Counted from the first letter of the stretch, positions 1-19,928 are shown. The stretch: DNA of 28,105 nucleotides from Candidatus Auribacterota bacterium (GCA_023136205.1 JAGLRQ010000114.1:1-28105), one strand, 5' to 3'. Notes: a model not told the origin generated them from the sequence alone. Numbers and translations are program-made.

Positions 1-137
1 GGGGGTAAGAGCGGCTCTACTGCCGAAACCTGGGCCGGCTGAGTAATATTATCTTCACCCAGGGTACTTTCAAGCGGCAAAACTGACAAAAGAAAAATAA
101 TTAATATCCTTTTAAAGAATGTACTTTTGGGAAGCAT
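1..137 (-). CDS. Hypothetical exported protein, N-terminal fragment (gene runs off the left edge)
   Basis: The ATG at 137..135 overlaps the TAA stop (139..137) of the upstream gene in a TAATG junction. My reverse-strand translation reads MLPKSTFFKRILIIFLLSVLPLESTLGEDNITQPAQVSAVEPLL..., a basic n-region plus hydrophobic core typical of a Sec signal peptide. It is absent from the ORF track because it is truncated. Its position after an ExeA/ExeB-like pair would fit a secretin or another envelope protein, but that is not shown. Confidence 0.4.
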   Translation of the reverse strand, partial: MLPKSTFFKRILIIFLLSVLPLESTLGEDNITQPAQVSAVEPLLP

Positions 138-835
138 TATTTTAACTCCGTTCTTTCTCCCTCAAAACTCAAAACTAACCTGTCTCTTAAGATGGTTTCA
201 ACCCTGACTTTACCTATCATATCGCCTTCTTTTACAAAAAAAGTTTTCAGCGCTTTTTTATCTTCAACCATCGCGTCCGGATCGCTTGACCATGAAATTC
301 CGACCAACCCCAAATTTTGTGTAACCTGTATAATCCTGGAAGATGGGCTGCTTGTAACCTCCTCAGTTTCCGCAGTTGGCTTCATTCCCATTTTAAATAT
401 ATCGCGCTCTCTGGCCTTTTCTAAATAATATAAGCCAGTTTCCCTAAGGCTTGACAGTACCGCGGGCGACTCCTTAAAAGGCTCCCTGCCCCCCGGCTCA
501 ATATCTAAACGGGGCAATTTCTTTAAATTAATCATCGAGGTATATAGATTATTGACAAAATATATTGAATATACTAAAAGAACAAAAACCAAAAGAGCTA
601 ATGCCCTATTTATAGTTTTAATATCCGGCCGGGCTGTTTTTCTTCTAAGCAGCCGTCTTTTTTTCAGCCTTTCCTTTAAAAAAGAAAACCTGCTTATCCA
701 CCAACCCAAAGAGAGCATTCCAATTCGATGAGGTTTAATCTTTTTAAGTTTTGCTTGTGAGTCCCCTGCTGTAGTTTGATCCTCAATTAATTTTAATAAC
801 TGTTTCTCTGGAGTAAAGGGTCTTTTTTGTGCCAT
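137..835 (-). CDS. Bitopic membrane protein, GspB/ExeB- or GspC/PilP-like secretion or pilus assembly component
   Basis: 232 aa with a basic cytoplasmic N-terminus and one TM helix (ALALLVFVLLVYSIYFV). The periplasmic C-terminus ends in a beta-rich segment (LGLVGISWSSDPDAMVEDKKALKTFFVKEGDMIGKVRVETILRDRLVLSFEG) resembling the GspB/GspC-HR/PilP fold signature. It overlaps the ExeA-like gene by 43 nt, so the true start could be the internal Met at 718. Confidence 0.5.
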   Translation of the reverse strand: MAQKRPFTPEKQLLKLIEDQTTAGDSQAKLKKIKPHRIGMLSLGWWISRFSFLKERLKKRRLLRRKTARPDIKTINRALALLVFVLLVYSIYFVNNLYTSMINLKKLPRLDIEPGGREPFKESPAVLSSLRETGLYYLEKARERDIFKMGMKPTAETEEVTSSPSSRIIQVTQNLGLVGISWSSDPDAMVEDKKALKTFFVKEGDMIGKVRVETILRDRLVLSFEGERTELK

Positions 836-1680
836 CCTGTTTTTATCTCTTTATCGGTTATTATTTCTTTATCGGTTATCTCTCTGATTAATCCGCTATC
901 TACAACTGATTTATTCAATAGCACTAATTTAGTCAATGCCTTATGGCAAAGCATGGTTATTTGTCTGGGATAACCGCGGCTATGCTGATGAATTTCTCGA
1001 ATGGCATCATCCAAAAAAAGATACATGCTTGACTTGTATCCTGCCTGTCTTATACGAAATTCAACCATCTCTTTGGTCTCTTCAAAATTCAAGGGATTCA
1101 ATGTATATTTAAAACTGATACGGTCAAAGAAATTTTGCATATTCATTATTTTATAATGGAGTTCCATCTGGCCCAAAAGAACAAGTTGAAGAAGTTTATA
1201 TTCATTGGTCTCATAGTTTAATAACGTCCGTAATATCTCCAAAGAATTTTCAGTTAATTTTTGGGCCTCATCGATAATAAGAACAGTAGTTTTGCCTTCT
1301 TCCACCCCTTTTTGGAAAAGAAACCTTTCCAGAGATTCTCTCAAATCTAAAATTGTAAAAGATTTGCCGCTTTCTATGTCAATATCGAAATTTCTGGAGA
1401 GCGATGTAAGAAAAAGCTGCTCATTGTCAAACGAAGGATCTAATATCATATGGAAAATAAAGGCCTCTCTCTTTTTTAATTCCTGAATAAGTTTTCGGGA
1501 AAGCGTGGTCTTTCCCGTGCCTATATCCCCCAATATTACAGAAAGACCTCTTTTGAGCCTGAGTTCTATCAATATATTCATCAGAGCTATCTCATGTTCC
1601 TTCGACATATAGAAAAATCGAGGGTCAGGGCTCGTTGAAAACGGTTCCTTCTGAAATCCCAACACTTTATAATAGGACAT
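793..1680 (-). CDS. ExeA/GspA/MshM-like AAA+ ATPase (secretion- or EPS-locus-associated ATPase family)
   Basis: 295 aa. Walker A is GDIGTGKTT and Walker B is VLIIDEAQKL. The N-terminal FGFxxxPF-type motif (LGFQKEPFSTSPDPRFFYMSKEH) is characteristic of ExeA/GspA-type ATPases. Two AGAGG Shine-Dalgarno-like elements lie in 1681..1712. Confidence 0.8.
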   Translation of the reverse strand: MSYYKVLGFQKEPFSTSPDPRFFYMSKEHEIALMNILIELRLKRGLSVILGDIGTGKTTLSRKLIQELKKREAFIFHMILDPSFDNEQLFLTSLSRNFDIDIESGKSFTILDLRESLERFLFQKGVEEGKTTVLIIDEAQKLTENSLEILRTLLNYETNEYKLLQLVLLGQMELHYKIMNMQNFFDRISFKYTLNPLNFEETKEMVEFRIRQAGYKSSMYLFLDDAIREIHQHSRGYPRQITMLCHKALTKLVLLNKSVVDSGLIREITDKEIITDKEIKTGWHKKDPLLQRNSY

Positions 1681-2039: not shown

Positions 2040-2939
2040 TCAAGATGAAAGGGTGTTTTTTTTGAGGCCTTCTTCAACACCTTCCAGGTATGAATTCACT
2101 ATCCTGCAATACCAATAGAATTTTTTATTTATTTTCCTGATAAATCCGATCTTTACCAAAACTGAAAAAATTATACGGGCAGCCCATATGTTTATCATCG
2201 GCAGGAGTATCGATTTCAATTCCGGGTGTTTTTTAAGCAGTATCACCGCGGAAATTCCTGTAAGTTTCATCCTGTGACAGAAAGACTCCATAGTCATCGG
2301 ATGAAAATGACAGCCTTGTGCTTTATTATTATATACAATTTTCAGGCCTTTCTTTTTCAAACGATAGGAGAGCTCAGAATCTTCCAGAGCTCCATAGGGA
2401 AAATCCTCATCAAATCTATCGTCTGCCATCCATTTTTTTGCCAGCGAAATATTGCATGTATAAAAATGCCTGAAATCGCAATCATTCGGGTCTTTAATTG
2501 TATTATATCTGAACTGAAAACCGTTTGGCGCTACATAATTCATAAAATCTGTAACTTTCTGTTCTTTACTCCAGTCAACAAAGCCTAAAATAGCTGCCTG
2601 GGAATGTTCTTTCAAAGATCTTACATGTTGTTCGATTAGATTTTTTGCCGGAAAAATATCATCGCCTATAAATAATATAAAATCTGATTGTGCTTCTTTT
2701 ACTCCTTTATTGCGCGCTGAAGCCGGCCCTTTTTGTTTCTGTTTTATATATTTTAATTTATAATCTACTCTATTTTGAAATTCTTTTACAATCGCTTCAG
2801 TATCATCATTACTGCCGTCATCCACTACTACTACTTCAAATTTGTCATGTGAATATGTCTGTTCATTTAGAAGCCGGAGTGTTTCTTTAAGAAGCTTCTC
2901 TCTATTATAGGATGGTATAATTACGCTTATATCGTACAT
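2040..2939 (-). CDS. Family 2 glycosyltransferase (GT-A fold), soluble or peripheral
   Basis: 299 aa. The N-terminus ISVIIPSYNREKLLKETLRLLNEQTY...EVVVVDDGSNDDT and the DXD-type GDD (FILFIGDDIF) are classic GT2 signatures. Confidence 0.85.
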   Translation of the reverse strand: MYDISVIIPSYNREKLLKETLRLLNEQTYSHDKFEVVVVDDGSNDDTEAIVKEFQNRVDYKLKYIKQKQKGPASARNKGVKEAQSDFILFIGDDIFPAKNLIEQHVRSLKEHSQAAILGFVDWSKEQKVTDFMNYVAPNGFQFRYNTIKDPNDCDFRHFYTCNISLAKKWMADDRFDEDFPYGALEDSELSYRLKKKGLKIVYNNKAQGCHFHPMTMESFCHRMKLTGISAVILLKKHPELKSILLPMINIWAARIIFSVLVKIGFIRKINKKFYWYCRIVNSYLEGVEEGLKKNTLSS

Positions 2940-2947
2940 GGCATTGG

Positions 2948-4957
2948 TTATGAAATTAGATAATTATAAATCAGATAAAAAACAGTTCTAAAATAGCTTG
3001 ATATTGTCAATTTAATAAAACATACATGGGTACAGCTGCAGTTTGTCTCTTTTATAGACATTTTCAGCCTGTTGGCCTGTTTTGAATTAAGGACTGCAGG
3101 AAAATCATAATTTGCCTCTTTTATATTTCCCACCGCGGGCTTAAGTTCACACAGTTTAACGTTTCCATCCGCGTCTAAAACAGCTATATTCCGGCCGGCC
3201 GAACATGTATAGAGAGCTCTTTTTTTTGCCAGGAACCGCTCTTTCAATTTTTGAGACATTTTAAGAAGGCTTATCGCGGCAAAATATTCTAAAGGGTTTA
3301 CATTCTTTCTTTTCAAATAACGTTTTCTATTTCTAATTATCAGATTATGTATTCTATTTACTTTTTCCAAGTCAGGAAGATAGAGATTCTTATCTTTATA
3401 ATCTCCGCGAAGGAGTTCGAAATCATGATAATCAATATCGAAATTATTGAAGGTAAAATCCATGAAATTTTCCAGCTGACCGATACTCCTGTTTGTAATT
3501 ACAGTATTTACAATTACTTCAAGGCCCTTGTCCCGATTTTTAAGCTTTAACAGTTCATTTAGAGTTTTGATTGCTTTATCAAAAACTCCGTCCACACCTC
3601 TTATAGAGTCATGCAGATCTCTAAATCCGTCTATTGAAATAGATATTGAGAGGATAAGATCCGGATATGCTTTCAGGATTCTTTCGGAGAATCGCACAAT
3701 TTTTTCGGTCAGGATTCCGTTTGTCGGTACAGTCAAAGCCGATATCCTGTTATTTTCTATAAACGGCCGGCATACCTCAAAAAGGTCATCTCTTAAAAAA
3801 GGTTCTCCACCCGAAAGCAAAAGCGTTCTGAATTTACCCATAGAATTTGATATTTTCTTTATTTCATCAACCGACAAGTTACTCGTTTTATTAAGTTCCT
3901 GCCAATAAAAACATGTGCTGCACCGGCAATTGCAGTTAGAGGTTACAAAGAAAATAAGAAATTCGAGTTTATTTCTTACAAACGCGTTTTTTAATAATTG
4001 AGTTGAATATCTCGCGAAATTCTTAAGGCTGGGCGCGCGTTTTTTCTTTTGTGCCCAATAGGCTTTATTTTCAGAAATAGATTCCTTAAACCATATCGGT
4101 AAAAACTGGCTGTATTTGCCCAATAAAAAGCCAAATAACCTGAAGGATTCATAAAACGGAAATAACAATAAGTATTTAAACATCTTGTTTTTATAAAAAT
4201 AGAGCATCGCTTTTTTTATATAATGTGTTTCACACAAAAGATTTCTTTTAAACGGCGCGTTAACAATGTCTTTCAAGGAAAGGCCGCTGTCAAAGTTTCT
4301 TGATATTATTCTTCCCACATTATAATCGTGGCTATGAAATACGGAAGCTAACGGTTCGTAGTCTATTTTTTTCCCTTTCATCAACATATCGCGGGACCAT
4401 GCCTGGTCTTCGCTCATTACCAAATGTTCTTTAAATTTATTCTTTTCCCATTCTGACCTGCGTATAGCAGAGTTCACGTTCGAAAATAATATATCCTGCA
4501 GAGTACAATTGTCAGGGTTTATAAAATATTTTATTATTTTGCGGCCGGGATATATATACCGCAAAAAAAACTTCTCCATCGCGGAAGCGTCCTCATTGGG
4601 AATCTGTCGGCCGAATATACCAGCCACATTCTTGTCGGTAAAACCCTTAACTAAACTGGAAAGCCATCCTTCATCTTTTGGGATCGCGTCCTGGCTCAGG
4701 AAAACAAGAATCTCGCCTTCAGCGTTTTCCGCTCCGATATTTCTTGAGCCGCCATGGCTAAAGGATAAAGGCTTTATGTCGATAAGCCTCGCGGAAAAAT
4801 TTTTAGCAATATCTTTTGTATTATCTGTTGAACCCGAATCAACTACAATAATCTCATAGTCAAAATCTACTTTATTTTTTGTTATCCCGTTTAAAAGCTT
4901 ATCAAACCTCGCGCCGGCATTTTTTGTAGGTATTATTATTGAGGCATAAATTGACAT
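2948..4957 (-). CDS. Fusion protein: N-terminal GT2 glycosyltransferase plus C-terminal radical SAM domain with SPASM/Twitch-like Cys cluster
   Basis: 669 aa, one uninterrupted ORF. Residues 1-230 are GT2 (IIIPTKNAG...EIIVVDSGSTDNT...LVFLSQDAIP). Residues 255-295 form an aromatic/hydrophobic linker (FKYLLLFPFYESFRLFGFLLGKYSQFLPIWF). From residue 335 it is radical SAM: CX3CX2C at C342/C346/C349 (FFVTSNCNCRCSTCFYW, nt 3911..3934) and a GGEP SAM-binding motif (LLLSGGEPFL). C-terminal auxiliary-cluster-like cysteines are CSAGRNIAVLDADGNVKLC and CSCTHVC. Confidence 0.8.
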   Translation of the reverse strand: MSIYASIIIPTKNAGARFDKLLNGITKNKVDFDYEIIVVDSGSTDNTKDIAKNFSARLIDIKPLSFSHGGSRNIGAENAEGEILVFLSQDAIPKDEGWLSSLVKGFTDKNVAGIFGRQIPNEDASAMEKFFLRYIYPGRKIIKYFINPDNCTLQDILFSNVNSAIRRSEWEKNKFKEHLVMSEDQAWSRDMLMKGKKIDYEPLASVFHSHDYNVGRIISRNFDSGLSLKDIVNAPFKRNLLCETHYIKKAMLYFYKNKMFKYLLLFPFYESFRLFGFLLGKYSQFLPIWFKESISENKAYWAQKKKRAPSLKNFARYSTQLLKNAFVRNKLEFLIFFVTSNCNCRCSTCFYWQELNKTSNLSVDEIKKISNSMGKFRTLLLSGGEPFLRDDLFEVCRPFIENNRISALTVPTNGILTEKIVRFSERILKAYPDLILSISISIDGFRDLHDSIRGVDGVFDKAIKTLNELLKLKNRDKGLEVIVNTVITNRSIGQLENFMDFTFNNFDIDYHDFELLRGDYKDKNLYLPDLEKVNRIHNLIIRNRKRYLKRKNVNPLEYFAAISLLKMSQKLKERFLAKKRALYTCSAGRNIAVLDADGNVKLCELKPAVGNIKEANYDFPAVLNSKQANRLKMSIKETNCSCTHVCFIKLTISSYFRTVFYLIYNYLIS

Positions 4958-4962
4958 AATGT

Positions 4963-6600
4963 TTATTCTGTATCTTGAGGTTTTTCCATAACAGGCGTTA
5001 ACGAATAGAAAAAGATATATCTGTCGCGCTCAAGCGATTTATAGATAGCCCCGATTCTCTTTATTCCGGAGAGTGACCCAAGAGATGCTTCTATATCCTG
5101 CCCCTTTCCTTTCTCAAGTATTACATAATGTAATTTTAAAGGTTCTTCTGTCATCCCAATTTCCTTAATATGGTAATTGTTTTGTATATATTCAAAAAGC
5201 GGCAGATTCGTGAATTTCAGCTGAAACAAATTCTCTATCGGGTAGAAACAGGTATATTTAATATTAAATTCTTTCTCCTTATTTTTAAATCCTTCCAGGT
5301 CTTTTACCCAACCCGCCATTCTACGGCTATAACGGACTATCCCATATCCCTGGGAATGAGTGGATAAAAATATATATTCACCGGGCCTGGTAAATTCGCG
5401 CAGTGATTTCCCCGCGACGTCTACTCCCAGAAAGGCTGTTCCATGCATCCTTAAAATTGAATTGTAAAGAAGGGGCGCTGAAATAATAATAGCAATTAAC
5501 ATAAATACTAAAAATAAATCGCGCCTAAAAAATTTTCTTACCACACTGGATATGGATGAAATTGTATAAACACTAGAAACCGAAACTAATATCAAAAAAG
5601 GCATCTGAGAGTAATTATTCTGAAATAAATATTTAGAATATATCATGCCATAAATTATAATCGCGAGCCCCCACCCGATTATATATTTATCTAACAAATT
5701 TTTTCTCTTAAAAAACGCGATGCATATTCCTAATAAAGCCAATATGGTATAGACAATTGTAAAATTTTCCTGTTTCGCGTACCACCATATCGTCCTGCCG
5801 TGCTCTGTCCAGTAGCGCGCGGTAAATATGTCAAACGGCTTTATTCCAGACATCTGTGTGAAATACCATCTATTCATAGATTTCAGCCATATTATACCGA
5901 TTATCAGCACTGAGGCCGACAAACAAAATACCAGCAGAGTCTTGAGAAGCTCCTTCCTGTTAGAAAGCAGCGCCTTAAAAGGGAAACAAACAAGATATGG
6001 AATGACGGTTATAAAGAAGTTAAACCTGTAGAAACACGCCGCTGACAAGGCCAGGCCGCTAATAAAAATATTATATTTTTTCATAGAGGATATAAATCGA
6101 ACATAAAATAAATTTGATAAAATCATAAAAAAGAACGCGGGGCTTTCGGGTTGAAGCTGTCGGGAAAAAAATACCGCAAGCGGCATAATGGCCAACAGGA
6201 AACTTGAGAAAAATGAAGGGAGCGGATTTTTAAAAAGAATAGCAGCTATAAAATAAATGATCAGTATGCTAAGCGCCCCAAATAGTATATTAAATAAACG
6301 CGGGCCCCACAAATTCTTATCCAAAAGGTTCCATGCTAAAATAACCTGGTACGAAATTAAAGGCGGCTGAGGATGGAATCTTTCTATAGGTTCTTCAAAT
6401 ATATTATAGCAATATAATCTATTTGAAGAATAATCACCGGCCTTTTGCATCTCGTGGGCAGTAGTCAAATATTCGTTTTCATTCATGTTGTGATAACCAA
6501 TCGATGGGAAATTAAGATTAAAGGATCTTAACGTGACCCCCAGCAAAATTATGAGCGTTAACACAAGAATTTTTGCTAATTTATAGATTCTTTTTTCCAT
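4963..6600 (-). CDS. GT-C fold membrane glycosyltransferase, ArnT/PMT_2-like (polyprenol-P-sugar dependent)
   Basis: 545 aa and polytopic, with about 11-12 hydrophobic helices. The first periplasmic loop carries an acidic motif (HNMNENEYLTTAHEM). This is followed by the PPL motif (HPQPPLISYQVILAW) typical of ArnT/PMT_2 enzymes. A soluble C-terminal domain of about 130 aa follows. Confidence 0.75.
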   Translation of the reverse strand: MEKRIYKLAKILVLTLIILLGVTLRSFNLNFPSIGYHNMNENEYLTTAHEMQKAGDYSSNRLYCYNIFEEPIERFHPQPPLISYQVILAWNLLDKNLWGPRLFNILFGALSILIIYFIAAILFKNPLPSFFSSFLLAIMPLAVFFSRQLQPESPAFFFMILSNLFYVRFISSMKKYNIFISGLALSAACFYRFNFFITVIPYLVCFPFKALLSNRKELLKTLLVFCLSASVLIIGIIWLKSMNRWYFTQMSGIKPFDIFTARYWTEHGRTIWWYAKQENFTIVYTILALLGICIAFFKRKNLLDKYIIGWGLAIIIYGMIYSKYLFQNNYSQMPFLILVSVSSVYTISSISSVVRKFFRRDLFLVFMLIAIIISAPLLYNSILRMHGTAFLGVDVAGKSLREFTRPGEYIFLSTHSQGYGIVRYSRRMAGWVKDLEGFKNKEKEFNIKYTCFYPIENLFQLKFTNLPLFEYIQNNYHIKEIGMTEEPLKLHYVILEKGKGQDIEASLGSLSGIKRIGAIYKSLERDRYIFFYSLTPVMEKPQDTE

Positions 6601-6609
6601 ATAAAAATT

Positions 6610-7758
6610 TTAGCTTTTTATCTCTCTTTCCAAAAATAACAGACTTATAAAAAAGGAAGAAAACATGGTCTGTAAGCCGATAACCAGAAAAGTCATGGCT
6701 AAGAGGGCTTCTCTTATTCTGTATAAGGCACCGAAATTCTTAGAAAACCAGTCTATAAAAATGAAAATTAGAATTACGAATCCCGTCAAAAATACGGCGC
6801 CGCCTAAAGCAAGCCCTTTTTCCAAACTAAAACGGCTCTGAAAAAAGACGGTTACCTTATCATACTTCAAGAATCCCTGTTTCAAAGCAAAGGTATGGGC
6901 AAATATACCCAGGTTCATCAACTGATAAGAAAGAATAGATATCACACTGGCAAAGGCCATCACGTGAATGTCCCAGGACCGGCCTAAAAAATATATCGGC
7001 CGCCTGGACAAAAGCAATAAAAGGATCATACCCCCCGCGAATCCCAAAATTCCGGGAATAAGATATAGCCACATCGGGCAATAAAGAAGCATAAATCTCG
7101 TATGGCGCCACGCGTCATACAAAGGTTTCAGCTTAGACTCGCCTATTCTAGGGTGGTAGTCAATTGGGACTTCGGATACCTTCAGATTCTTTGTTATAGC
7201 AGAAACAACCATCTCTGTCGCAAATTCCATACCCAGTGTTCTCAACTTCATTTTCTTATACGCCTCATTTGTAAGAGCACGCATACCGCAATGGATATCT
7301 GAAAGCCTGGTACGAAAAAATAGGCGGCATATTCCTGAAAGCACAGGATTGCCTATATACCGATGTGACCAGCTCATCGCCCCTTTTCTGATTTTGCCTT
7401 TAAACCTGGAACCCATCACTAAATCATATCCCTCTTTCAGGGGTTTTAAAAATTTAGGAATATCATAGAAATTATATGTATCATCCGCGTCTCCCATGAT
7501 TATATACTTACCTTTTGCTTCCCTTAAACCTCGCAAATAGGCCGCGCCGTAACCTTTATGTGTCTCGGAAACAACAATCGCCCCTTCTCTTTCGGCAATC
7601 TCCCTTGACCTGTCTATGGAACCATTATCAACGACAACAATCTCACCGGCAATATTCTCCTTCGCGAATACATCTTTAATCTTTTTTACGCAGAGGCCAA
7701 TTGTTTCTTCTTCGTTAAGACATGGTAAAATACAAGAAACATCCACAGTTTTACTCAT
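6610..7758 (-). CDS. Membrane-anchored GT2, polyprenol-phosphate glycosyltransferase type (DPM1/GtrB/ArnC/AglD-like)
   Basis: 382 aa. The GT2 head reads VSCILPCLNEEETIG...IVVVDNGSIDRS, with DXD in IIMGDADDTY. Four C-terminal TM helices follow (e.g. LYLIPGILGFAGGMILLLLL, FLTGFVILIFIFIDWF). Adjacency to a PMT_2-like GT-C is the usual pairing of a lipid-P-sugar synthase with the enzyme that consumes it. Confidence 0.75.
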   Translation of the reverse strand: MSKTVDVSCILPCLNEEETIGLCVKKIKDVFAKENIAGEIVVVDNGSIDRSREIAEREGAIVVSETHKGYGAAYLRGLREAKGKYIIMGDADDTYNFYDIPKFLKPLKEGYDLVMGSRFKGKIRKGAMSWSHRYIGNPVLSGICRLFFRTRLSDIHCGMRALTNEAYKKMKLRTLGMEFATEMVVSAITKNLKVSEVPIDYHPRIGESKLKPLYDAWRHTRFMLLYCPMWLYLIPGILGFAGGMILLLLLSRRPIYFLGRSWDIHVMAFASVISILSYQLMNLGIFAHTFALKQGFLKYDKVTVFFQSRFSLEKGLALGGAVFLTGFVILIFIFIDWFSKNFGALYRIREALLAMTFLVIGLQTMFSSFFISLLFLEREIKS

Positions 7759-7785
7759 TCTGCCACCGCCATCCTTTCCATGTTA

Positions 7786-10290
7786 TCATGTCATATTATA
7801 TATCCGTATAAACTTATTCGATTCTTCAACGTCTATAAAAGGGTGAAAATGCTTAAGGCCCCTGCCTTTAAAAAAATAGAGGCGCGAAAATAAACTTTTA
7901 CCCAATTCTCTGTCCAAAAAAATCAGTTTATAAACACCATCCCCCTCTTCCGAAATTAAGGCCGAGTATATCACATTCGCGTTGTTATACGTTATTTCCT
8001 GAATATCATTATCTTCATCTTCAAAAATAAACAGGCTTCTTGGTATATGCCCGTTCTTTGAATAAACTGTTTTTTCTTTTGGGTTATAAATGTATCCGTT
8101 GGCAAAAAGAACCACTTCACCCTGTTCCTTGCCATTGACTAAAGGGCTGTAAAATTGGAGCCTGTTTGAAAGCCAATCATCCAAAGTATTTGGAGTAATC
8201 AAAAACGCCTCCTGGTGAAACTTCTGAATCAACCCCTTATCTCTCCCCAAGTCAACGAGGCGTTCTATAATTTTTTGTTCTTCCTTAATATCAAGGTTCT
8301 GAGCAATATACACTTTTGAGAAATCCCAATTCCCTAAATAGGAAATCGCCCCTATTTTCGGTACCATTGTATCATCCACGACAAAATAAGCGGGGGCAGG
8401 TGTAGAAAACAATAAATTAATTACTTTCTTCACGGCATATTGAGGCAAATAATTTTTTAATAATTCTCGAGCCCGTTCAGGATTTAATACCATTACTTTT
8501 TCTAATAACAAAACAGCTTCCAGGGGGTCCTGGATATGCTTATCCATAACCTCAAATGCCATGTTGCCGCCATTATTTAACATCCTTAGAATCGCGATTG
8601 CCTGGCCTTCATTATGGCTCAGTATGGCCTTTGCCATCCAATAAGCCTGAGGATGAACCTGGCTTTGCCCATCAAAAATTACTCTGCGCCTCGCAATTAC
8701 TTTAAACCAGTCACCAAAATCCCACCAGGAATTCAGGATCGCGTTTTGGGGTGTTTTCTCTTTAACAATATTGAGTACCCTATACCATGTGTCATTTATA
8801 AGAGGATAAATACCGGTAGCTGACCTGTGGCTAATTTTGAGATATAACGCGCCGGGAACAACTAATGTTATTGACAAAAGTAAAATGCCTGCCGTGTTCT
8901 TATTATTTTTTAATTTTTTATATATCTCGTCTATCAGCCATCCTGTACATATGCCAAGCGGCACAATTAAGAACATTACAAATCTTATACCCGTGAAACA
9001 CGCGAAAAGCATGGCCGCAAACCAGATATTTAATATAATTATCGCGGCATGTTTAGATTCCCGGTACGGGTTATACCAGATAGTTCTTATCAAAAGTAAA
9101 ATCATGCAAATAGCGGTAGAGGCAAATACCCATATCCCGCCAAGGGACCGCGATACGCTGGCGATATTGGCATTTCTTAGTTCTCCGACAGTATATAAAA
9201 CGTTGGGCCACACAGACGCGACCAGAGGTTTGGTCAAAAATATCGCTTTAAATGTTTCCGTACATAATACGCGAATCGGCTCTTTGCCTGAAATAATTAA
9301 AACCCAAAAAAGAGTGCCAATTAAAAAACAAATTAAAGAAATAACATGCTTTTTAGCCGGTTCTATCTTGTCTTTTCCCGAAAAGAAATAAATGAAAAAT
9401 AGAGAAATTAAATATATGATTTCGTACGCGATAAGGATAAAAAAGACAAACCACCAATGCGTCCAGTTAAAACAAAATAAACCGAGCCAGAATGAAGAAA
9501 AAATTATCCACAACAACCTTTTCTTCAAAGGCCGGTCTTTTTGGCCTTCGATATATGTCCATATCACTAATACGGGAAAAAGCAAATTTAGAATATCTTT
9601 GTCAAACCAGCCTACACAGCTCCGGTGCAAAAATGTTGGCGCTAAACCAATAAAGATACAACTGATAATAGCGCCGAGGTGACCACTATAGCGGTAAGAA
9701 AATAGATATGATATGACAATAAATATTGCTGTGAAGAATAAAGGCAGGTAAAACAGAAAATTATATAATTCTACTTGTCGAAACAATCTGAAGATTTTAT
9801 AGAGATAAGCTGAAGCATAATAAAGGAGCTGCTGCCATTGCAAATAATAGCCGTTTGGCGCCAGCATATAATAATCCCATTCCCTACCGGCAATTGTCTG
9901 GTCACCCGGGCTCCCCCGTTGAACAACATTTTCTACATATCTTGCCCAATGCCAGCAGTCTAACTCCATGATATAAGTCTGGCCCCGGTCATCCTGGAAC
10001 CTGTCTTTTAACTGCTGATATATTGCCTGTGTCTGGTTTTTTATCTCTTTTTTATTCAGGCTTATATATTGTTTAACTCTGGACTTTGCTATTCTATCTT
10101 TTGCCGTCGGATAAAAATGAGGGAATTTTTTCTGGATATCGCCCATAGCAATCTGACGTATCCTGTCATAGACTATATTTTTAGCTTGCTTCTTTAATTG
10201 CGGGAAATAGACTGGAAATAAACGCGGATAAAGGGTTAAAACTAAAACAATTCCTAAACATATGCCGAAAATGATCTTTCTTCTTTTCAT
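7786..10290 (-). CDS. STT3/PglB/AglB-family oligosaccharyltransferase
   Basis: 834 aa with about 13 TM segments plus a C-terminal periplasmic domain of about 330 aa. All hallmark motifs are readable. The EL1 acidic motif is IMELDCWHWAR (D111). The second is HRSCVGWFDKDIL (compare PglB RxxxGYYDTDML). The EL5 TIXE/SVSE-type motif is YTVGEL (residues 367-370). WWDFG occupies residues 522-526 (nt 8713..8727, verified on the reverse strand as tggtgggattttggt). A candidate MI/DK-region segment is DDTMVPKIGAISYLG. Confidence 0.85.
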   Translation of the reverse strand: MKRRKIIFGICLGIVLVLTLYPRLFPVYFPQLKKQAKNIVYDRIRQIAMGDIQKKFPHFYPTAKDRIAKSRVKQYISLNKKEIKNQTQAIYQQLKDRFQDDRGQTYIMELDCWHWARYVENVVQRGSPGDQTIAGREWDYYMLAPNGYYLQWQQLLYYASAYLYKIFRLFRQVELYNFLFYLPLFFTAIFIVISYLFSYRYSGHLGAIISCIFIGLAPTFLHRSCVGWFDKDILNLLFPVLVIWTYIEGQKDRPLKKRLLWIIFSSFWLGLFCFNWTHWWFVFFILIAYEIIYLISLFFIYFFSGKDKIEPAKKHVISLICFLIGTLFWVLIISGKEPIRVLCTETFKAIFLTKPLVASVWPNVLYTVGELRNANIASVSRSLGGIWVFASTAICMILLLIRTIWYNPYRESKHAAIIILNIWFAAMLFACFTGIRFVMFLIVPLGICTGWLIDEIYKKLKNNKNTAGILLLSITLVVPGALYLKISHRSATGIYPLINDTWYRVLNIVKEKTPQNAILNSWWDFGDWFKVIARRRVIFDGQSQVHPQAYWMAKAILSHNEGQAIAILRMLNNGGNMAFEVMDKHIQDPLEAVLLLEKVMVLNPERARELLKNYLPQYAVKKVINLLFSTPAPAYFVVDDTMVPKIGAISYLGNWDFSKVYIAQNLDIKEEQKIIERLVDLGRDKGLIQKFHQEAFLITPNTLDDWLSNRLQFYSPLVNGKEQGEVVLFANGYIYNPKEKTVYSKNGHIPRSLFIFEDEDNDIQEITYNNANVIYSALISEEGDGVYKLIFLDRELGKSLFSRLYFFKGRGLKHFHPFIDVEESNKFIRIYNMT

Positions 10291-10369
10291 AATTATCTGA
10301 TATTAACATAATTTATAAAATAGTGTAATGTTACAAATGCCATAGAGTAATGTAATGCTCCCCCATTAG

Positions 10370-12739
10370 TCAAGGGGAATCAGGTTGGCGGCATTCTTCA
10401 TTATACCGATTGAAATATTCTTCCGCTTTTTCCTCGTTTTCCTCAAGATTGCTTAATATTCCTAATTTTTTATACACATCAGCACTGCGCGTTGGTATCT
10501 TAAGGCAATTATTTAATGTATCACGAGATTCAGTATATTGCCCTCTATAATAATACACATCAGCTAATAGTTCCAATACTTTGGCCCCTAATGGCTCAAC
10601 AACCAGATCTTCGAAGCTCATGAGCTTTAAATATTCTTTCAATAGATTTTCAGTCTTCTCATATCGGCCAAGCTGAAAAAGGGCCTGGCTTAATACAAAG
10701 ACAGCTTCGCTCCCTTTGGGAACCTTTTTAACCACCGGCTCCAGAATATCAGCAGCCATAAATGCTTCTCCTCTCTTCAGTAGAACGGATGCCCGGTTTA
10801 CCTTTTGAGCGTAAGCAATAATTACCTCATCATAGTTTTTACGCGTATTCTTATAGAATCCTTTTTCCTTAGTATAAAGAATGGGATCATATATTGGCGA
10901 ATAAGGTATTTTTTTTATGGCCGAGTCCAATTTTTCACTAACTTCATAAACAATAAAGGCGCTGTTCCTGAATACGGGCGTAAAGTATTTAAGTTCCGGA
11001 CTACTGAAATGCAGGCGGGATGCCATTGCCTTTTCCGATATATCCGGTACAGCCGCGCCAAGGTATCTCATTGAATCATTACCATCGGTTATGAAAAAAC
11101 CCCAATCGTAAATCAAATATTTAGCCCCGTTTTTCTCGCAAAACTCAAACAAAGCCTCCTCATCCTCGCTATACATAGACGTTATCAGCTCCTCATATTT
11201 TTTTCTTATCGCGAGATTTTCGAACTTGGGATGCAGGACCTCAGGCCGGCCGGTGTTAATTAATACCATGGGGCTCAAGTGAATATGCGCTACAAAAGCG
11301 TCGTTGGGCCGGGTATTGGTATTTATCCAGTTGTAAAGCTCATTATAACTTGTCGGGGTAAAACGGCCTGCCTCTATCGGCCTTAAATTCAGGCCTAAAA
11401 CATTTAATATAACCAAAGAAGATAAACCGATTTTAAAATAATTTTTTTTATCGCCATAAATTATACATCCCCATAGCGCTACCGAAACAAAGGGAGCGGC
11501 AACTACCAATACGCGCTTCGCCATTATAGATAACAAAAATAGTATTATCGATACCGACGCGATAAAAGTACCGGAACCTGGTTTATGTCTTTCGTACCAC
11601 AAAATAAAAAATGACCCGATTATCCCCAGAGGAAAGACCAGTTTCCCAAGCCACCATAGTTCGGAAAGCGTCGGTGAATTGAACGCGGATTCCCATAATT
11701 GACGAGCATTAAAACTAAGGAGTAATGGATCATCCGGTTTTTCCAATAAGAATTTTAATTTTTCGAAGAACATGCCGAAAACATGCGAATAGGCCGGGTT
11801 ATAAAGGCCTGTCATATTTCTAGTCATCAGCAGAATAAAAAATACCAATGAGGCGAGCAGAAGCCGGTTCAGGGGGGTTTTTGTAATTTTTTTCAGGGGA
11901 TATGAGATAAGAAGGGAATACAGGCCGCACATCAATATGGATGTTACGAATACTCTCTCTCTCAATACAGGTATAGTAAAACCAGCCAGGAGCAATATGA
12001 GCAAAGCAGGGAAAAATTTTTTTAACAAGGTAGGCCTTGTCGCGTATATCAAAAAGAAAAAAGGCAGCATGCACATATAAATAAAATGATTAAGGTGCCA
12101 TGACGACACATTAAAGACAATCACAAGGCCCAGGAACACGCCTTTTAATGGATTTGGCTTACTGTCTAACTGTTTCAAAATTAATAGTACGCTGAACAAC
12201 AAAAAAAACAGAGTAAAGTCTTCACGCAGGAAAGAGCCTGACGCGATCCGAAGATAACTGACAGGTGTAGTAATATAATAAAGAGAGGCCGCGAGCGCGA
12301 CAAGGCTATTTTTAAATAACGTTTTAGTAATCAGAAACACCATTACGAGAGACAGGCTTGAGAAAAAACAGCTTAAATATATAAGAAAGAGATTAAAGGG
12401 TAATCCAAAACTGAATAGCCTATACAGGAAACCATAAAAAAATTCCATCATTATTGTGTAATATTTAAAAACATTGATAGTTTCCGGATGCTGTATTGAC
12501 TTATCATTTTTTAATAAAGGAAAGACGTTTTCCCCTTCTTCCGCTGCAAGTTCCGCGTAACGGTAATGGAAAGCCGCCTCGGCATAATATAAGGAACCCG
12601 GCGCTGAGGGATTAAAATGGCTGTTCTTTTTCACCTTGACAATTTTGTAAATGGAAGTACCAATGACAAGGATTCCAAGAATAAGGCATATGCTGATAAA
12701 CTTTATATTGAAACGCCTGGTATATGAATAATCTTGCAT
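10370..12739 (-). CDS. STT3-like GT-C paralog lacking the WWDXG motif, with C-terminal TPR repeats
   Basis: 789 aa and polytopic. It aligns by eye to the neighbouring OST. EL1 reads YYAEAAFHYRYAE (acidic residue plus HYR). The second motif is RIASGSFLREDF. The EL5 motif is PTLSEL. Where the OST has NAILNSWWDFGDW, this protein has NDAFVAHIHLSPM. The downstream periplasmic segment KYLIYDWGFFITDGNDSMRYLG aligns with AYFVVDDTMVPKIGAISYLG. Residues 640-789 carry TPR-like helical repeats (RGEAFMAADILEPVVKK..., QALFQLGRYEKTENLLKEYLKL, LADVYYYRGQYTESRDTLNNCLKI, KKLGILSNLEENEEKAEEYFNRY). Confidence 0.65.
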   Translation of the reverse strand: MQDYSYTRRFNIKFISICLILGILVIGTSIYKIVKVKKNSHFNPSAPGSLYYAEAAFHYRYAELAAEEGENVFPLLKNDKSIQHPETINVFKYYTIMMEFFYGFLYRLFSFGLPFNLFLIYLSCFFSSLSLVMVFLITKTLFKNSLVALAASLYYITTPVSYLRIASGSFLREDFTLFFLLFSVLLILKQLDSKPNPLKGVFLGLVIVFNVSSWHLNHFIYMCMLPFFFLIYATRPTLLKKFFPALLILLLAGFTIPVLRERVFVTSILMCGLYSLLISYPLKKITKTPLNRLLLASLVFFILLMTRNMTGLYNPAYSHVFGMFFEKLKFLLEKPDDPLLLSFNARQLWESAFNSPTLSELWWLGKLVFPLGIIGSFFILWYERHKPGSGTFIASVSIILFLLSIMAKRVLVVAAPFVSVALWGCIIYGDKKNYFKIGLSSLVILNVLGLNLRPIEAGRFTPTSYNELYNWINTNTRPNDAFVAHIHLSPMVLINTGRPEVLHPKFENLAIRKKYEELITSMYSEDEEALFEFCEKNGAKYLIYDWGFFITDGNDSMRYLGAAVPDISEKAMASRLHFSSPELKYFTPVFRNSAFIVYEVSEKLDSAIKKIPYSPIYDPILYTKEKGFYKNTRKNYDEVIIAYAQKVNRASVLLKRGEAFMAADILEPVVKKVPKGSEAVFVLSQALFQLGRYEKTENLLKEYLKLMSFEDLVVEPLGAKVLELLADVYYYRGQYTESRDTLNNCLKIPTRSADVYKKLGILSNLEENEEKAEEYFNRYNEECRQPDSP

Positions 12740-12740
12740 A

Positions 12741-14195
12741 TTATTTCGCGGAATATCTCAATATATGAAGCGCCCGTTTGGCAAGAAAAGGAAGGTCTTT
12801 CAGTTTGAAATATTTTCTTTTCAAGAGACACATCATTCTAAGAAATTCACCTTTTAATTTTATTATGTTTCTGTCCGTTTTGCTAACACCGGGCAAATCC
12901 ATTATAAATAAGCCTTCTTTTTGCCAACTTTCCCAACTATCCCGAAATGCCGGGTTCAACAAATTATGTTTACAAGCAATATCGTATAGTTCGCTGCCCG
13001 GATATGGTGTTGCTATTGACCAGCTGATATAATCAGCAAGATTATTTTTAACCAGTTTCCACGCGAAATCCAGTGTATTTTTGGTCATTTTTACATCTTC
13101 ATAGCACAATTTCCCGTTTTCTTCCCATACATTAAAAAGCATAAAAAGCGCCATAACTTTTATATTATATTTTTTCAAGAGTTTACAAGTCAGCTCCACG
13201 TCCTTTAAATCTATCTTCTTTTTTATGCCATTTAGTGTTTCCTGATTGCCGCTTTCAACTCCGAGGTGCACATACCAGCAGCCTGACGCGGCCAATTCTT
13301 TCGCAAGTTCTTCTGTAAACGGGCTAACCCGTAATTGTGTCTTCCAGGTTATACCCAAATTTCTTTTTTTAATTTCACGGCAAACAGCTAAAGAATGTTC
13401 TAAATTGCAGTTAAATTCATCGGAGTTATCAAATATCTCTTTCACAGAAAAACTATTCTTTAGATACTCCATTTCATCAACTATATTCTGTGGGCTGCGG
13501 AAACGAACAACCGGCTGTGATGATTTCCATACACGGTTGGAACAGAATGTGCAGTTGTACGGGCACCCCCGGGAAAAAAACATAGTTGCCTCCGGGCTCT
13601 GTTTTGACATATACCACCCCTTATATTCCGCAATGTCAATCAAGTCCCAGGCAGGGAAGGGAATCTTGTCTAAAGGAGTTATGAATTTAGACGGCGCATT
13701 TTGGCGTACTTTACCATCAATCTTAATACATATTCCCGGAAGATTCGCGAACTCAGACAAATTCTTATCCTGGGATATTAGTCTTACAATCCGACTGAAT
13801 GTCTTTTCGCCTTCACCTATTATTACTATATCCGCTCCGCTGGCCTTAAGTGTATCCTCCGGCAGGGTAGTAGCATGAGCGCCGCCCATCACCACTATTG
13901 AGGAGGGTAGTATTTTTTTTACCTCTTGAGCTAACTTTGACGCGCCGTAGGCCAGGGTAGTATAGAAAGAAATCCCGACTATGTCCGGCTTGAATTTTTT
14001 TATTTCTTGAAGCGTACTTTTATATCCTATTTTACAGCCGTCAGTTATCTTGATTTCTACATTCGCCATTCTGGAACGAAGATATGAGGAAAGATAAAGT
14101 ATGCCCATAGGCGGCCACATATTTTCGCCCAAGACCTCATACGGCGAGTAAAGAAGAGAAGGAGCGAAGACTAAATGGACTTTTTTTTCATTCAT
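12741..14195 (-). CDS. B12-binding-domain radical SAM enzyme (class B rSAM)
   Basis: 484 aa. The N-terminal Rossmann-like cobalamin-binding region reads VHLVFAPS...PPMGILYLSSYL...PDIVGISFYT...IVVMGGAHAT. This is followed by the radical SAM CX3CX2C motif in FFSRGCPYNCTFCSN. Its stop codon (12741..12743) lies 1 nt from the ATG of the next gene (12739). Confidence 0.85.
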   Translation of the reverse strand: MNEKKVHLVFAPSLLYSPYEVLGENMWPPMGILYLSSYLRSRMANVEIKITDGCKIGYKSTLQEIKKFKPDIVGISFYTTLAYGASKLAQEVKKILPSSIVVMGGAHATTLPEDTLKASGADIVIIGEGEKTFSRIVRLISQDKNLSEFANLPGICIKIDGKVRQNAPSKFITPLDKIPFPAWDLIDIAEYKGWYMSKQSPEATMFFSRGCPYNCTFCSNRVWKSSQPVVRFRSPQNIVDEMEYLKNSFSVKEIFDNSDEFNCNLEHSLAVCREIKKRNLGITWKTQLRVSPFTEELAKELAASGCWYVHLGVESGNQETLNGIKKKIDLKDVELTCKLLKKYNIKVMALFMLFNVWEENGKLCYEDVKMTKNTLDFAWKLVKNNLADYISWSIATPYPGSELYDIACKHNLLNPAFRDSWESWQKEGLFIMDLPGVSKTDRNIIKLKGEFLRMMCLLKRKYFKLKDLPFLAKRALHILRYSAK

Positions 14196-14306: not shown

Positions 14307-15071
14307 CTAATTTTCTGCTATAGCCAACTTGGACATTACGACAAGCTCCAGATATAAAAGATCAAAAGGTTTCAAAACATAACCGTAAGCGCCCATCTCT
14401 ATCGCTTTTTTGATATTTTCATTATCTTGTCTCCCTGTAACTATCACAATGCCGAGTTTAGGGTTGATCTCCAATAGCTTTTGCATAGTAACGAGGCCGT
14501 TCATTCCCGGCATATTGATATCAAGCAAAGCAACCGAGAATTCCTTAGAACGGGCAATTTCAAGCGCTCTTTCACCATTTTCAGCCTCCTCCACATTCGC
14601 ATACCCCTTTTTTTTAAAGAAGAGGCTTAGGACGCGGCGAATTTCCGGCTCGTCATCGACAATAAGGATTGACTTCTCTTTTCTTTTAGACAAACCCTGA
14701 GAAACACGAGCACTACCCTTAATAAACTTGCTTATTTGCTCTACAAGCTGCATGATCTCTGTATCTTTGCTTAAGACTTCGTTAGCTCCGGCTATTCGAG
14801 CTTCCTTTTCAAGCTCAGGCGTAATAACACCTGAATAGATCACCACGGGGATCTTCTTCTGCAGTTCTCTGATTTTTTTTAAAACAGAAATCCCTGACTC
14901 TCCGGTTAATCTAATATCCAAAAGGACAAGGCCAAAAGATTCTTGAGTAATACAAGCCAATGCCTGCTCCGCGTTTGGAACAGTAACAACATGGTATCCT
15001 TTCTTAACCAGGGCTTTATGTAAAAGTTCCCTAATCCTCACTTCATCATCTACAACCAATATCTTTATCAT
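14307..15071 (-). CDS. Tandem receiver (REC-REC) response regulator without an output domain
   Basis: 254 aa. REC1 reads ILVVDDEVRIRELL...LVLLDIRLTGESG...PVVIYSG. REC2 reads ILIVDDEPEIRRVL...VALLDINMPGMNG...IVIVTGRQD...AYGYVLKPF. A strong SD (AAGAGGAG) lies upstream. Confidence 0.85.
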   Translation of the reverse strand: MIKILVVDDEVRIRELLHKALVKKGYHVVTVPNAEQALACITQESFGLVLLDIRLTGESGISVLKKIRELQKKIPVVIYSGVITPELEKEARIAGANEVLSKDTEIMQLVEQISKFIKGSARVSQGLSKRKEKSILIVDDEPEIRRVLSLFFKKKGYANVEEAENGERALEIARSKEFSVALLDINMPGMNGLVTMQKLLEINPKLGIVIVTGRQDNENIKKAIEMGAYGYVLKPFDLLYLELVVMSKLAIAEN

Positions 15072-15162
15072 AAGACAATGCTCCTCTTTTATGGGCAGGC
15101 TGTCTCAGCAGATCCGCGAATACATTTACCACATCAACCCTTGATTTTTGCTATAAAGTGGT

Positions 15163-16308
15163 CTATCGTTTCTTTGAAAAATAAATCGAAATCTTTGCTA
15201 GTTTACTGGCTGGCTGATCCTCTTCAGGTTCCAAATAGCCAAATTCGGTAAAAACAACATCCGCAGAAACCACCATGGTTTGTATTCGGCTTTTCAATTT
15301 CGCGATTTCTGTCCTTGCAATAGAGAAAATAATAAGCTCTCTCGATTCATAATCAACTGAAACACCTGTTTTTCGAATAATATTCAATAATTTTGGCCTC
15401 TGGCGTACAGCGGAAAAAATATGCCAGTGAAAGATGTTAGAAGGTTTATCTTTTTTGTTTTCAAGATACATAGAAACACGGCTTTCTCTTTCCTGAAAGG
15501 CAGCTGTTCCGGCACTGTAATTATGTAAAGGATTTCTCCGCTGAAAAGCGAACTTTATTTGCTCAAGCAAGTTATCAAGCTCCGCACCCTTGACATTAAA
15601 AACAAGCAAACTAGAATCTTGATAGTCGGGCCTGATGCCCAGGATGCTAATCATATCCAATAGTTTGGTTTTTTCAGTGTCTTCAGAATATATAAAATGC
15701 CAATGAAGCGGTTTGGGTTCAACAATTTGAACCTCGGCCATATCTGAAGAATCAGCCAATGCCGAAGTTTTTTCTGTAGAAACTCTCTCTTCAAAAATTC
15801 CCCCGGCAGCTTCTTTCTTCTCAGGCAGTCCTCGTGTTTTTGCGATTCCTTTTAAATCTTCAGATAACAATTCTGTTTCGTAATTGTTTATCGCCGGCCT
15901 TCGCTCTATAATTGTTGTTAGCACGGGAGTTTCATCTACTTCCCTTAAAGAACAGCGGTATTTAAAATACTCAGTCCCGAAGAAAAGTATCGAAAGTGCT
16001 AAAATCCCGACAAGAATTCTGATATTCAGCTTTTTCGAAATAACAAACTTGGGCTTTCTAATTTCTTGTTCAGCTTGTTTTAACCTGAAAAGGATTGTAG
16101 AGCTTAAATCCGAAGGGGCGTCAACATCGCCTAATTCCCACAACTGATTGGAAATAGACCCTATTTTTCTTACATAATCCTTGCACTTCCCGCAGCTATT
16201 CAGGTGGTTAACGAAAGCCTGATATTCATCATCTACAAGTAAGTCATCCAGGAAGGCTTTTAATTTTTCCCTGATATCGCCGCAATCCATGTTAAAATTA
16301 TTCTCCAC
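15163..16308 (-). CDS. Membrane-spanning zinc-finger (ZAS-type) anti-sigma factor with a duplicated extracytoplasmic domain
   Basis: 381 aa. The N-terminus has C9 plus the HxxxCxxC motif (HLNSCGKC, H35/C39/C42). One TM helix follows (IRILVGILALSILFFG). The C-terminal region has two similar units of about 85-90 aa, each opening with HWH (residues 200-285 and 291-380). The gene overlaps the sigma gene by 11 nt. An alternative start is Met7 at 16290. Confidence 0.75.
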   Translation of the reverse strand: MENNFNMDCGDIREKLKAFLDDLLVDDEYQAFVNHLNSCGKCKDYVRKIGSISNQLWELGDVDAPSDLSSTILFRLKQAEQEIRKPKFVISKKLNIRILVGILALSILFFGTEYFKYRCSLREVDETPVLTTIIERRPAINNYETELLSEDLKGIAKTRGLPEKKEAAGGIFEERVSTEKTSALADSSDMAEVQIVEPKPLHWHFIYSEDTEKTKLLDMISILGIRPDYQDSSLLVFNVKGAELDNLLEQIKFAFQRRNPLHNYSAGTAAFQERESRVSMYLENKKDKPSNIFHWHIFSAVRQRPKLLNIIRKTGVSVDYESRELIIFSIARTEIAKLKSRIQTMVVSADVVFTEFGYLEPEEDQPASKLAKISIYFSKKR

Positions 16309-16804: not shown

Positions 16805-16822
16805 CTTATCCTTTATGGTCTA

Positions 16823-17212: not shown

Positions 17213-17236
17213 GCTCTACCCCCATTTTTTTCTCCA

Positions 17237-19918: not shown

Positions 19919-19928
19919 AAAAGTTCTC

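Follow-up and report, generated by a model that had tools for sequence, protein, structure and literature searches.

Radical S-adenosylmethionine (SAM) enzymes that modify sugars are known almost solely from antibiotic pathways (BtrN, DesII, GenK and BlsE) and from the synthesis of lipid head groups (HpnJ and Cds), and none is known to take part in building the glycans of cell surfaces or of proteins. In the HpnI/HpnJ and Cds systems, a glycosyltransferase (GT) attaches a hexose to an acceptor anchored in the membrane, and the sugar is then remodeled by a radical SAM (rSAM) enzyme (PMC13459092). There the transferase, which is of GT family 2 (GT2) in the case of HpnI, and the radical enzyme are separate proteins, acting on hopanoid or glycerol dialkyl glycerol tetraether (GDGT) lipids. 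The archaeal Agl and Campylobacter Pgl pathways of N-glycosylation combine an oligosaccharyltransferase of the STT3/AglB/PglB type, carrying a WWDxG motif, with an AglJ-like GT2 and soluble GT2 enzymes, and to our knowledge, as in the literature searched, these pathways have no recorded step by a radical SAM enzyme. Here we describe a gene at positions 2948-4957 of a 28,105-nucleotide stretch of DNA from Candidatus Auribacterota bacterium (GCA_023136205.1, JAGLRQ010000114.1:1-28105; this whole stretch is called the window hereafter), which encodes a GT2 glycosyltransferase and, on the same polypeptide, an enzyme of the radical SAM type. Our favored reading, held with moderate confidence, is that the gene is a recent fusion of a GT2 gene and a Twitch-type rSAM gene within an operon for a polyprenol-linked glycan, and that its product couples sugar transfer with radical modification of a sugar.

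The original prediction for this gene, made from the sequence alone, was of one uninterrupted reading frame joining a GT2 head to a radical SAM core, and this was borne out, with an ATG start on the minus strand; the plus-strand reading was rejected, its translation being full of stops. The product, MCK4948073.1, is named simply 'glycosyltransferase' by NCBI and comes from a metagenome-assembled genome of Candidatus Auribacterota (Aureabacteria), a taxon label that the pyruvate kinase of the window also bears. All three Pfam models exceeded their gathering scores: Glycos_transf_2 (PF00535) at residues 6-152 (E 8e-22, 78.3 bits against a cutoff of 23.3), Radical_SAM (PF04055) at residues 338-501 (E 5e-13, 50.1 bits against 29.5) and, marginally, SPASM (PF13186) at residues 585-642 (24.1 bits against 21.5). 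Residues 1 to about 300 make up an intact GT2 and residues from about 312 to 669 an intact radical SAM enzyme, with the catalytic residues conserved in both halves.

One concern was that the organism has two genes and that the fusion reflects an assembly chimera or a sequencing indel. The junction does lie within an A-rich tract (CAAAAGAAAAAAC), and at this place the closely related L008, in which the genes are two, shows a difference of 1 nt. However, fused orthologues at 97%, 91% and 72% identity are present on independently assembled contigs (ENA, NCBI, Logan and JGI samples), and their junction peptides have diverged while staying in frame (QKKKRAPSL, QKKKSVSSL and QKKKNISGI), the ancestral ATG and stop being gone from all of them. 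Because the samples and assemblers behind these in-frame sequences are independent and the junctions have diverged, an artefact is barely credible, and the GT2-rSAM protein is a genuine natural fusion. The junction is also covered by some shorter, truncated gene calls (P0004, P0005 and P0122); reading P0122 and P0123 as two separate genes was rejected, since the apparent split is a contig break.

The origin of the fusion can be followed in sister lineages at 63-75% identity, which encode the same two proteins as separate neighboring genes. In L008 the GT2 is a separate open reading frame of 311 aa whose last codons overlap the start ATG of the rSAM gene (ATGTCACATCTTAA, an ATG...TAA overlap), and in L006 a GT2 of 289 aa is followed, after a gap of 54 nt, by an rSAM protein of 370 aa, in a gene order identical to that of the window. 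When the DNA of the window, L001 and L004 was compared with that of L008, a single-nucleotide indel was found in the A-rich stretch just upstream of the overlap, which brings the two genes into one frame, so that neither the stop of the GT2 nor the ATG of the rSAM gene is left. The comparison shows that the fusion arose by a 1-nt indel merging two adjacent, overlapping genes. Because the derived QKKK junction is common to the window and L004 and the ancestral arrangement is kept in L008, the sequences point to one fusion event at the base of the sub-clade of the window and L004. In L081, a relative at 53% identity, the order is PMT-rSAM-GT2b-GT2a followed by two genes for B12-binding rSAM enzymes (B12-rSAM) (10001-12934); the adjacency of GT2a and rSAM is therefore itself derived, by rearrangement before the fusion. 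The fusion is an evolutionarily recent, shallow and mechanistically ordinary event.

The motifs predicted for the rSAM half, namely C342-x3-C346-x2-C349, GGEP at 383-386 and C640-x-C642-x3-C646, are all present. Across 62 stand-alone and 22 fused homologues, the three cluster-binding Cys, GGEP, N413, D443, R517, C585, C603, E604, C640 and C642 are invariant and C646 is at least 90% conserved, while C344 and C396 vary. AF2 modeled this half with confidence (pLDDT 93.5, pTM 0.91), and Foldseek matched the model to SkfB, anSME, SuiB, BlsE, CteB, MoaA, viperin, EpeE and DesII with TM-scores of about 0.5-0.6 and 13-19% identity, at probability 1.00 for SkfB, anSME, MoaA and viperin. SkfB was the top match both by fold and by profile. 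We conclude that the rSAM half sits in the right branch of the radical SAM superfamily and has no close solved relative.

The C-terminal domain was examined against the definitions of PMC6231123, in which a SPASM domain has seven Cys (CX9-15GX4C-gap-CX2CX5CX3C-gap-C) and two auxiliary clusters, and Twitch is a truncated one-cluster form, with the pattern CX33CXC in SkfB. Alignments showed five conserved Cys (CX12GX4C...CXCX3C), CX2CX5CX3C and the terminal Cys being absent; the spacing from C585 to C603, earlier given as C-x18-C, is actually C-x17-C (C-X12-G-X4-C). In the models, strands at 591-594, 599-601 and 608-611 are followed by a helix at 626-638 and then by C640/C642/C646. Because the Cys pattern fits the one-cluster definition and not the seven-Cys one, the domain is predicted to be Twitch-like, with one auxiliary cluster. 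A canonical two-cluster SPASM domain was ruled out by the Cys count; the profiles were divided, the NCBIfam SPASM model TIGR04085, which also counted against it, scoring 18.6 bits against a cutoff of 27 while PF13186 passed. Of the SPASM/Twitch sites originally suggested, the Twitch-like part stands.

SkfB, BtrN and MoaA likewise consist of an rSAM core and then a beta-hairpin/helix domain with a single auxiliary-cluster Cys set, and the CX33CXC of SkfB is paralleled by C603-X36-C640-X-C642. The fusion differs from these Twitch enzymes in that it is only 16-19% identical to them, has the fifth conserved Cys (C646) and carries an invariant Glu after the hairpin Cys. At the position of this E604, a profile alignment placed an Asp of anSME that directly follows the hairpin Cys and is probably a catalytic base. 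SkfB also has an N-terminal RiPP recognition element (RRE; RiPP, peptide made on ribosomes and modified after translation) whereas the fusion is without one, and the genes of SkfB, BtrN and MoaA serve RiPP, aminoglycoside and molybdenum cofactor synthesis whereas the context of the fusion is glycan assembly. The SPASM enzymes anSME, SuiB, CteB, PqqE, MftC and AhbD/NirJ belong to the same superfamily branch and have the CX9-15GX4C part in common; unlike them, the fusion, with neither CX2CX5CX3C nor the terminal Cys, cannot hold two fully ligated auxiliary clusters. No NCBIfam equivalog passed its cutoff for the fusion. The best matches were heme/siroheme rSAM enzymes (AhbD 71.5 against 500, NirJ1 70.6 against 650, NirJ2 68.8 against 500 and AhbC 64.3 against 650 bits), and the mycofactocin equivalogs MftF (TIGR03965, 70.7 against 280) and MftC (TIGR03962, 51.9 against 265) and the hopanoid equivalog HpnH (51.5 against 225.05) were also below cutoff. 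An already annotated family of known function, which would have undercut the original prediction, was found neither among NCBIfam equivalogs nor in NCBI naming nor in the literature searched, which held nothing on an rSAM-GT fusion architecture or on an rSAM step in STT3-type or lipid-linked oligosaccharide pathways.

By profile, modeled fold, acidic motif and catalytic acidic residue, the N-terminal half is a GT2 enzyme of the GT-A fold. In the family alignment D40, H68-G69, R72, Q89-D90-A91 (DXD-like) and E183-D184 are invariant; the acidic motif is QDA and not the classic DXD. Foldseek matches of this half were K4CP, PcManGT, TarP/TarS, WrtF and RmlT, which are glycan- or polymer-acting GT2 enzymes, and its relatives, 36-40% identical, include some labeled 'rhamnosyltransferase' by JGI. 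These relatives often form the N-terminus of GT2-GT4, GT2-methyltransferase and GT2-ABC2 proteins, with the same module of about 300 aa including its hydrophobic tail, but the partner at the C-terminus is a second transferase or a methyltransferase in those proteins and a radical SAM enzyme in the fusion.

The hydrophobic stretch at about residues 258-300, originally taken for an aromatic/hydrophobic interdomain linker, is conserved in stand-alone GT2 enzymes and in the three kinds of composite protein; because it is conserved throughout the GT2 family, it belongs to the GT2, and the true junction lies at about 303-311. A transmembrane linker was also ruled out, no segment having transmembrane-like hydropathy. 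This tail may be a membrane-interface element, and the helix pair at the C-terminus of the fusion could possibly make a peripheral membrane contact. A full-length model from a 22-sequence alignment (pLDDT 81, pTM 0.55, with residues 285-329 at pLDDT <50) suggests two folded domains joined by a low-confidence tether.

In many lineages, members of the same rSAM family are encoded next to unrelated GT2 domains or fused to them. The loci L077/L078 contain another STT3 cluster (STT3, GT2_TM_C, B12-rSAM, GT2 and GT4), the last gene of which encodes a GT2::rSAM protein of 657 aa. Between this protein and that of the window the rSAM halves show 34% identity and the GT2 halves are essentially unrelated; the L077 fusion is independent of the window fusion. 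In an exhaustive HMMER search of 1.84 billion representatives, at least 19 further GT2(N)::rSAM(C) proteins of 618-733 aa, each representing a cluster at the 50% identity level, were among the best 150 matches, and the architecture is thus not unique. Their rSAM halves scored 157-221 bits and their GT2 halves 18-109 bits against either window GT2 (orthologues score 350-620), and the GT2 partners of these fusions are therefore non-orthologous. In a rough neighbor-joining tree, fused and stand-alone forms were interspersed and the window clade was nested among stand-alone 370-aa proteins; a single ancient fused family was ruled out by this scatter and by the non-orthologous GT2 halves. The architecture is already in public databases, unannotated, and its domains are of well-known superfamilies, so that it is not categorically new.

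The recurrent independent fusions argue that both activities serve one pathway. To that extent the coupling of the two activities that had been proposed is supported, but 'obligatorily coupled' does not agree with the split sister lineages or with the low-confidence tether. Among stand-alone members at 36-39% identity, the arrangements GT4-rSAM-GT2-WecG-B12rSAM and GT4-B12rSAM-rSAM-B12rSAM-MTase-GT2 (MTase, methyltransferase) were seen; one fused member lies in a Wza-type export cluster, beside a B12-rSAM. A profile-based tally over all loci compared gave GT2, GT4 or B12-rSAM neighbors for the glycan-type clades. Independent fusions to different GT2 enzymes together with this constant linkage are strong 'Rosetta stone' evidence for cooperation between the rSAM enzyme and glycosyltransferases. 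Almost all of the glycan-type loci examined (L001, L006, L009, L077, L081, L082, L083 and L085) contain a B12-rSAM as well as the Twitch rSAM, which suggests that the two work as a pair.

In the window, the fused gene is part of a tightly packed operon on the minus strand, which extends from 14195 to 2040 and whose genes lie 1-79 nt apart (Table 1), and the glycosylation block is syntenic in L001, L004, L006, L008 and L081. The operon builds a polyprenol-linked glycan, which is most likely passed on to protein via the STT3 oligosaccharyltransferase. It shares with the Agl and Pgl systems an oligosaccharyltransferase, an AglJ-like GT2 and soluble GT2 enzymes, with scores below the equivalog cutoffs (AglJ 164.6 against 325; PglB 30.7 against 1300). 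AglS adds a sugar from a polyprenyl-phosphate sugar donor, and a GT-C of the window operon could act likewise. With HpnI/HpnJ and with calditol synthase Cds, the locus has in common the logic of a glycosyltransferase followed by an rSAM enzyme, and HpnJ is the second-best NCBIfam match of the neighboring B12-rSAM; the window locus contains no hopanoid genes. As to the individual genes, the PMT_2 GT-C, the AglJ/Dpm1-like GT2 and STT3 stand in a row (4963-10290), all with NCBIfam equivalog scores below cutoff, and the best matches of the B12-rSAM were BchE (155 bits) and HpnJ (139.5 against 577.6 bits), both far below cutoff.

We infer the substrate and the chemistry of the fusion from this genomic context, and several observations weigh against the reading that it transfers and tailors a sugar of a lipid-linked glycan. 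No characterized homologue was found. No transmembrane segment is predicted anywhere in the fusion, the highest hydropathy being 1.39, which leaves membrane association a conjecture, and the full-length model has no confident domain-domain interface. A large clade of homologues from Acidobacteriota and Gemmatimonadota (30-36% identity) lies outside any glycosyltransferase context, with no GT or B12-rSAM neighbors, or at most one GT2, in the tally. Furthermore, the distance of the rSAM half from enzymes that modify peptides (SkfB, anSME, SuiB and CteB) is about the same as that from enzymes that modify sugars or nucleotides (BlsE, DesII, viperin and MoaA), and function is not predictable from similarity within this subfamily (PMC6231123).

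The first of these two groups of enzymes raises the possibility, present in the original prediction, of a peptide or protein maturase, whose rSAM half would modify a residue as sactisynthases and anSME do and whose GT2 half would glycosylate SunS-style. Besides SkfB, SuiB, CteB and anSME among the best structural and sequence matches, many peptide maturases are among the NCBIfam partial matches, the operon is one for protein glycosylation, and downstream of it is a cluster for a pilus/secretin system and giant proteins. We nevertheless regard this as improbable. No RRE/PqqD-like domain was detected in the fusion (Pfam, E<=0.01), and the stand-alone rSAM forms have only about 40 residues, one helix, ahead of CX3CX2C. 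No precursor-sized open reading frame adjoins the fused gene, whose flanking gaps of 5 and 8 nt leave no room for one. The maturase scores are far below NCBIfam cutoffs (StsB 61 against 625, PapB 47 against 340 and MftC 52 against 265), the GT2 half resembles glycan- or polymer-acting enzymes, and distant members lie in polysaccharide clusters with Wza, WecG, GT4 and nucleoside diphosphate (NDP)-sugar enzymes.

The second group bears on tailoring of the donor, which is the main alternative and is not separable from acceptor tailoring in silico. BlsE, DesII and viperin, all among the fold-search matches, act on nucleoside or nucleotide-linked substrates (a TDP-sugar for DesII and CTP for viperin), and GT2 enzymes use nucleotide-sugar donors, so that the rSAM half may modify a soluble nucleotide sugar and the fused GT2 may transfer the labile donor directly. 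The change of fusion partner among lineages fits a supply of donor to various transferases, and in L082 an NTP_transferase, a DegT aminotransferase and an epimerase are next to the rSAM gene. On the other hand, the window operon contains no nucleotidyltransferase or other NDP-sugar enzyme, all its other members act on lipid-linked substrates, and the hydrophobic helices in both halves suggest proximity to a membrane. We therefore consider donor tailoring unlikely, though clearly worth keeping in view.

The lipid carrier itself could also be the substrate, if the rSAM half modified polyprenyl phosphate or another membrane lipid (cf. HpnH, Tes and Gms) and the GT2 then glycosylated that lipid. 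There is a weak profile match to GDGT/macrocyclic archaeol synthase (48.5 bits, in the cluster-binding region) beside the match to HpnH, a lipid role of the Acidobacteriota clade would agree with the distribution of its homologues, and lipid-modifying rSAM enzymes are a growing class (PMC13459092). However, the scores are far below cutoffs (51.5 against 225 for HpnH), and the tight recurring linkage is to glycosyltransferases and B12-rSAM and not to lipid synthesis genes, and we give this explanation little weight. The Acidobacteriota/Gemmatimonadota genes adjoin genes for a sigma factor of the extracytoplasmic function (ECF) type, an anti-sigma protein with zf-HC2 and a large protein resembling outer membrane proteins (L079/L080 7001-8170; L084 8001-9113; most of L012-L068). 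A uniform function across the rSAM family was ruled out by this context, and the clade is probably a functionally different subfamily.

Under our favored reading, in which the fusion acts on a lipid-linked glycan, the GT2 half would sit peripherally at the cytoplasmic face of the membrane and move a sugar from a nucleotide sugar to the growing lipid-linked glycan. The rSAM half would cleave SAM reductively at the C342/C346/C349 cluster, and the resulting 5'-deoxyadenosyl radical would take a hydrogen from a sugar, at an unactivated carbon; this sugar would belong to the same intermediate or be the donor sugar of the GT2. The electron of the substrate radical would be handled by the single auxiliary cluster (C585/C603/C640/C642/C646), as the auxiliary cluster has been suggested to take the radical's electron in the dehydrogenases BtrN and anSME (PMC6231123). 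The product might be a keto, epimerized, deoxy or rearranged sugar, and the co-conserved B12-rSAM would then probably methylate or rearrange the glycan further. The fusion would in this scheme be a tether for two consecutive steps and would create no new active site. Auribacterota have been inferred to be anaerobic fermenters, a lifestyle that suits oxygen-sensitive radical chemistry (PMC9324843).

Table 1 Features of the fused gene and of its operon in the window (residue numbers refer to the fused protein).
Feature	Coordinates	Strand	Basis or remark
Fused GT2-rSAM gene	2948..4957	-	Complete, ATG start, 669 aa and stop; NCBI MCK4948073.1 (Candidatus Auribacterota)
GT2 (GT-A fold) catalytic domain, residues 6-230 (predicted)	4268..4942	-	PF00535, alignment, Foldseek
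Helical, partly hydrophobic C-terminal tail of GT2 family, residues 236-302	4052..4252	-	Alignment, hydropathy, model
Fusion junction QKKKRAPSL, residues 303-311	4025..4051	-	Differs by a 1-nt indel from L008, where the genes are split
Radical SAM partial TIM-barrel core, residues 332-515	3413..3964	-	PF04055, AF2, Foldseek
CX3CX2C motif (C342/C346/C349), predicted SAM-binding [4Fe-4S] cluster	3911..3934	-	Alignments
GGEP SAM-binding motif, residues 383-386, invariant	3800..3811	-	Alignments
Twitch-type auxiliary-cluster domain (predicted), residues 585-646, C585-X12-G-X4-C603(-E604)-X36-C640-X-C642-X3-C646	3020..3205	-	Pfam, alignments
C-terminal helix pair, moderately hydrophobic (Kyte-Doolittle 1.39, below transmembrane threshold)	2951..3025	-	Hydropathy and models
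B12-binding radical SAM enzyme (BchE/HpnJ-like), first operon gene	12741..14195	-	Pfam, NCBIfam
Dpy19-like multi-transmembrane GT-C protein with C-terminal TPR repeats, 789 aa	10370..12739	-	Pfam Dpy19, 7e-26
STT3-family oligosaccharyltransferase, WWDFG at its residue 522	7786..10290	-	Pfam, NCBIfam, motif
GT2 with C-terminal transmembrane domain, AglJ/Dpm1-like polyprenyl-phosphate sugar synthase	6610..7758	-	Pfam, NCBIfam
PMT_2-type GT-C glycosyltransferase, multi-transmembrane, 5 nt upstream of fused gene	4963..6600	-	Pfam, hydropathy
GT2b (EpsD-like), 8 nt downstream of fused gene, partner in all syntenic loci	2040..2939	-	Pfam, NCBIfam, synteny

Other genes of the operon and its surroundings are of interest in their own right. 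Dpy19 is the eukaryotic family of tryptophan C-mannosyltransferases, and the Dpy19-like protein of the window, which L001 conserves and whose orthologue in L006 also matches STT3, may be a GT-C of bacterial type. With STT3, PMT-like and Dpy19-like GT-C proteins in one operon, the glycosylation toolkit resembles those of eukaryotes or archaea to a degree that is unusual in bacteria. In L004, the fused relative at 72% identity, an extra gene for a 355-aa protein with Radical_SAM and SPASM matches (513-1580) stands between an STT3 fragment and GT2_TM_C, unlike in the window, which has no extra rSAM gene at this place. Downstream of the operon are a MerR-like gene and an ExeA/MshM-like AAA_22 ATPase (window 137-1680, minus strand), and relatives with longer sequence there continue with a T2SSB-like protein, a secretin or a pair of them, TPR proteins and very large proteins of 1717-2762 aa (L001 13295-22010, L004 8225-16449, L006 12649-21113 and L081 16021-21110). 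This pilus/secretion cluster could supply the targets of glycosylation. Upstream, at 14307-21458 on the minus strand, are genes for a response regulator with two receiver domains, a 381-aa putative anti-sigma protein that has no Pfam match, a protein with sigma-70 region 4, a regulator with one receiver, a histidine kinase with dCache, HAMP and PAS domains and a protein with several PAS domains. This dense regulatory block may control the glycosylation and pilus genes.

The window fusion points to a widespread, unstudied rSAM family that probably tailors sugars during glycan assembly. More tentatively, and as a possibility that we would not yet call likely, the role of this family would be radical sugar tailoring within lipid-linked glycan assembly, feeding STT3 in Auribacterota and in the L077 lineage. 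The recurrent module of GT2, rSAM and B12-rSAM and the bacterial operon with STT3, Dpy19-like and PMT-like proteins should be notable to specialists. The fused enzyme is a compact target for the study of new anaerobic sugar chemistry, and, with transfer and tailoring on one polypeptide, its use in glyco-engineering is possible. If the proposal is true, a pathway of the N-glycosylation type would for the first time be seen to include a radical SAM step, and, together with the B12-rSAM, C-modified, keto, epimerized or ring-contracted (cyclitol-like, cf. HpnJ/Cds) sugars might result on bacterial glycoproteins. The recurrent fusions to GT2 enzymes would then mark a widespread, unrecognized class of glycan-tailoring radical enzymes in anaerobes.

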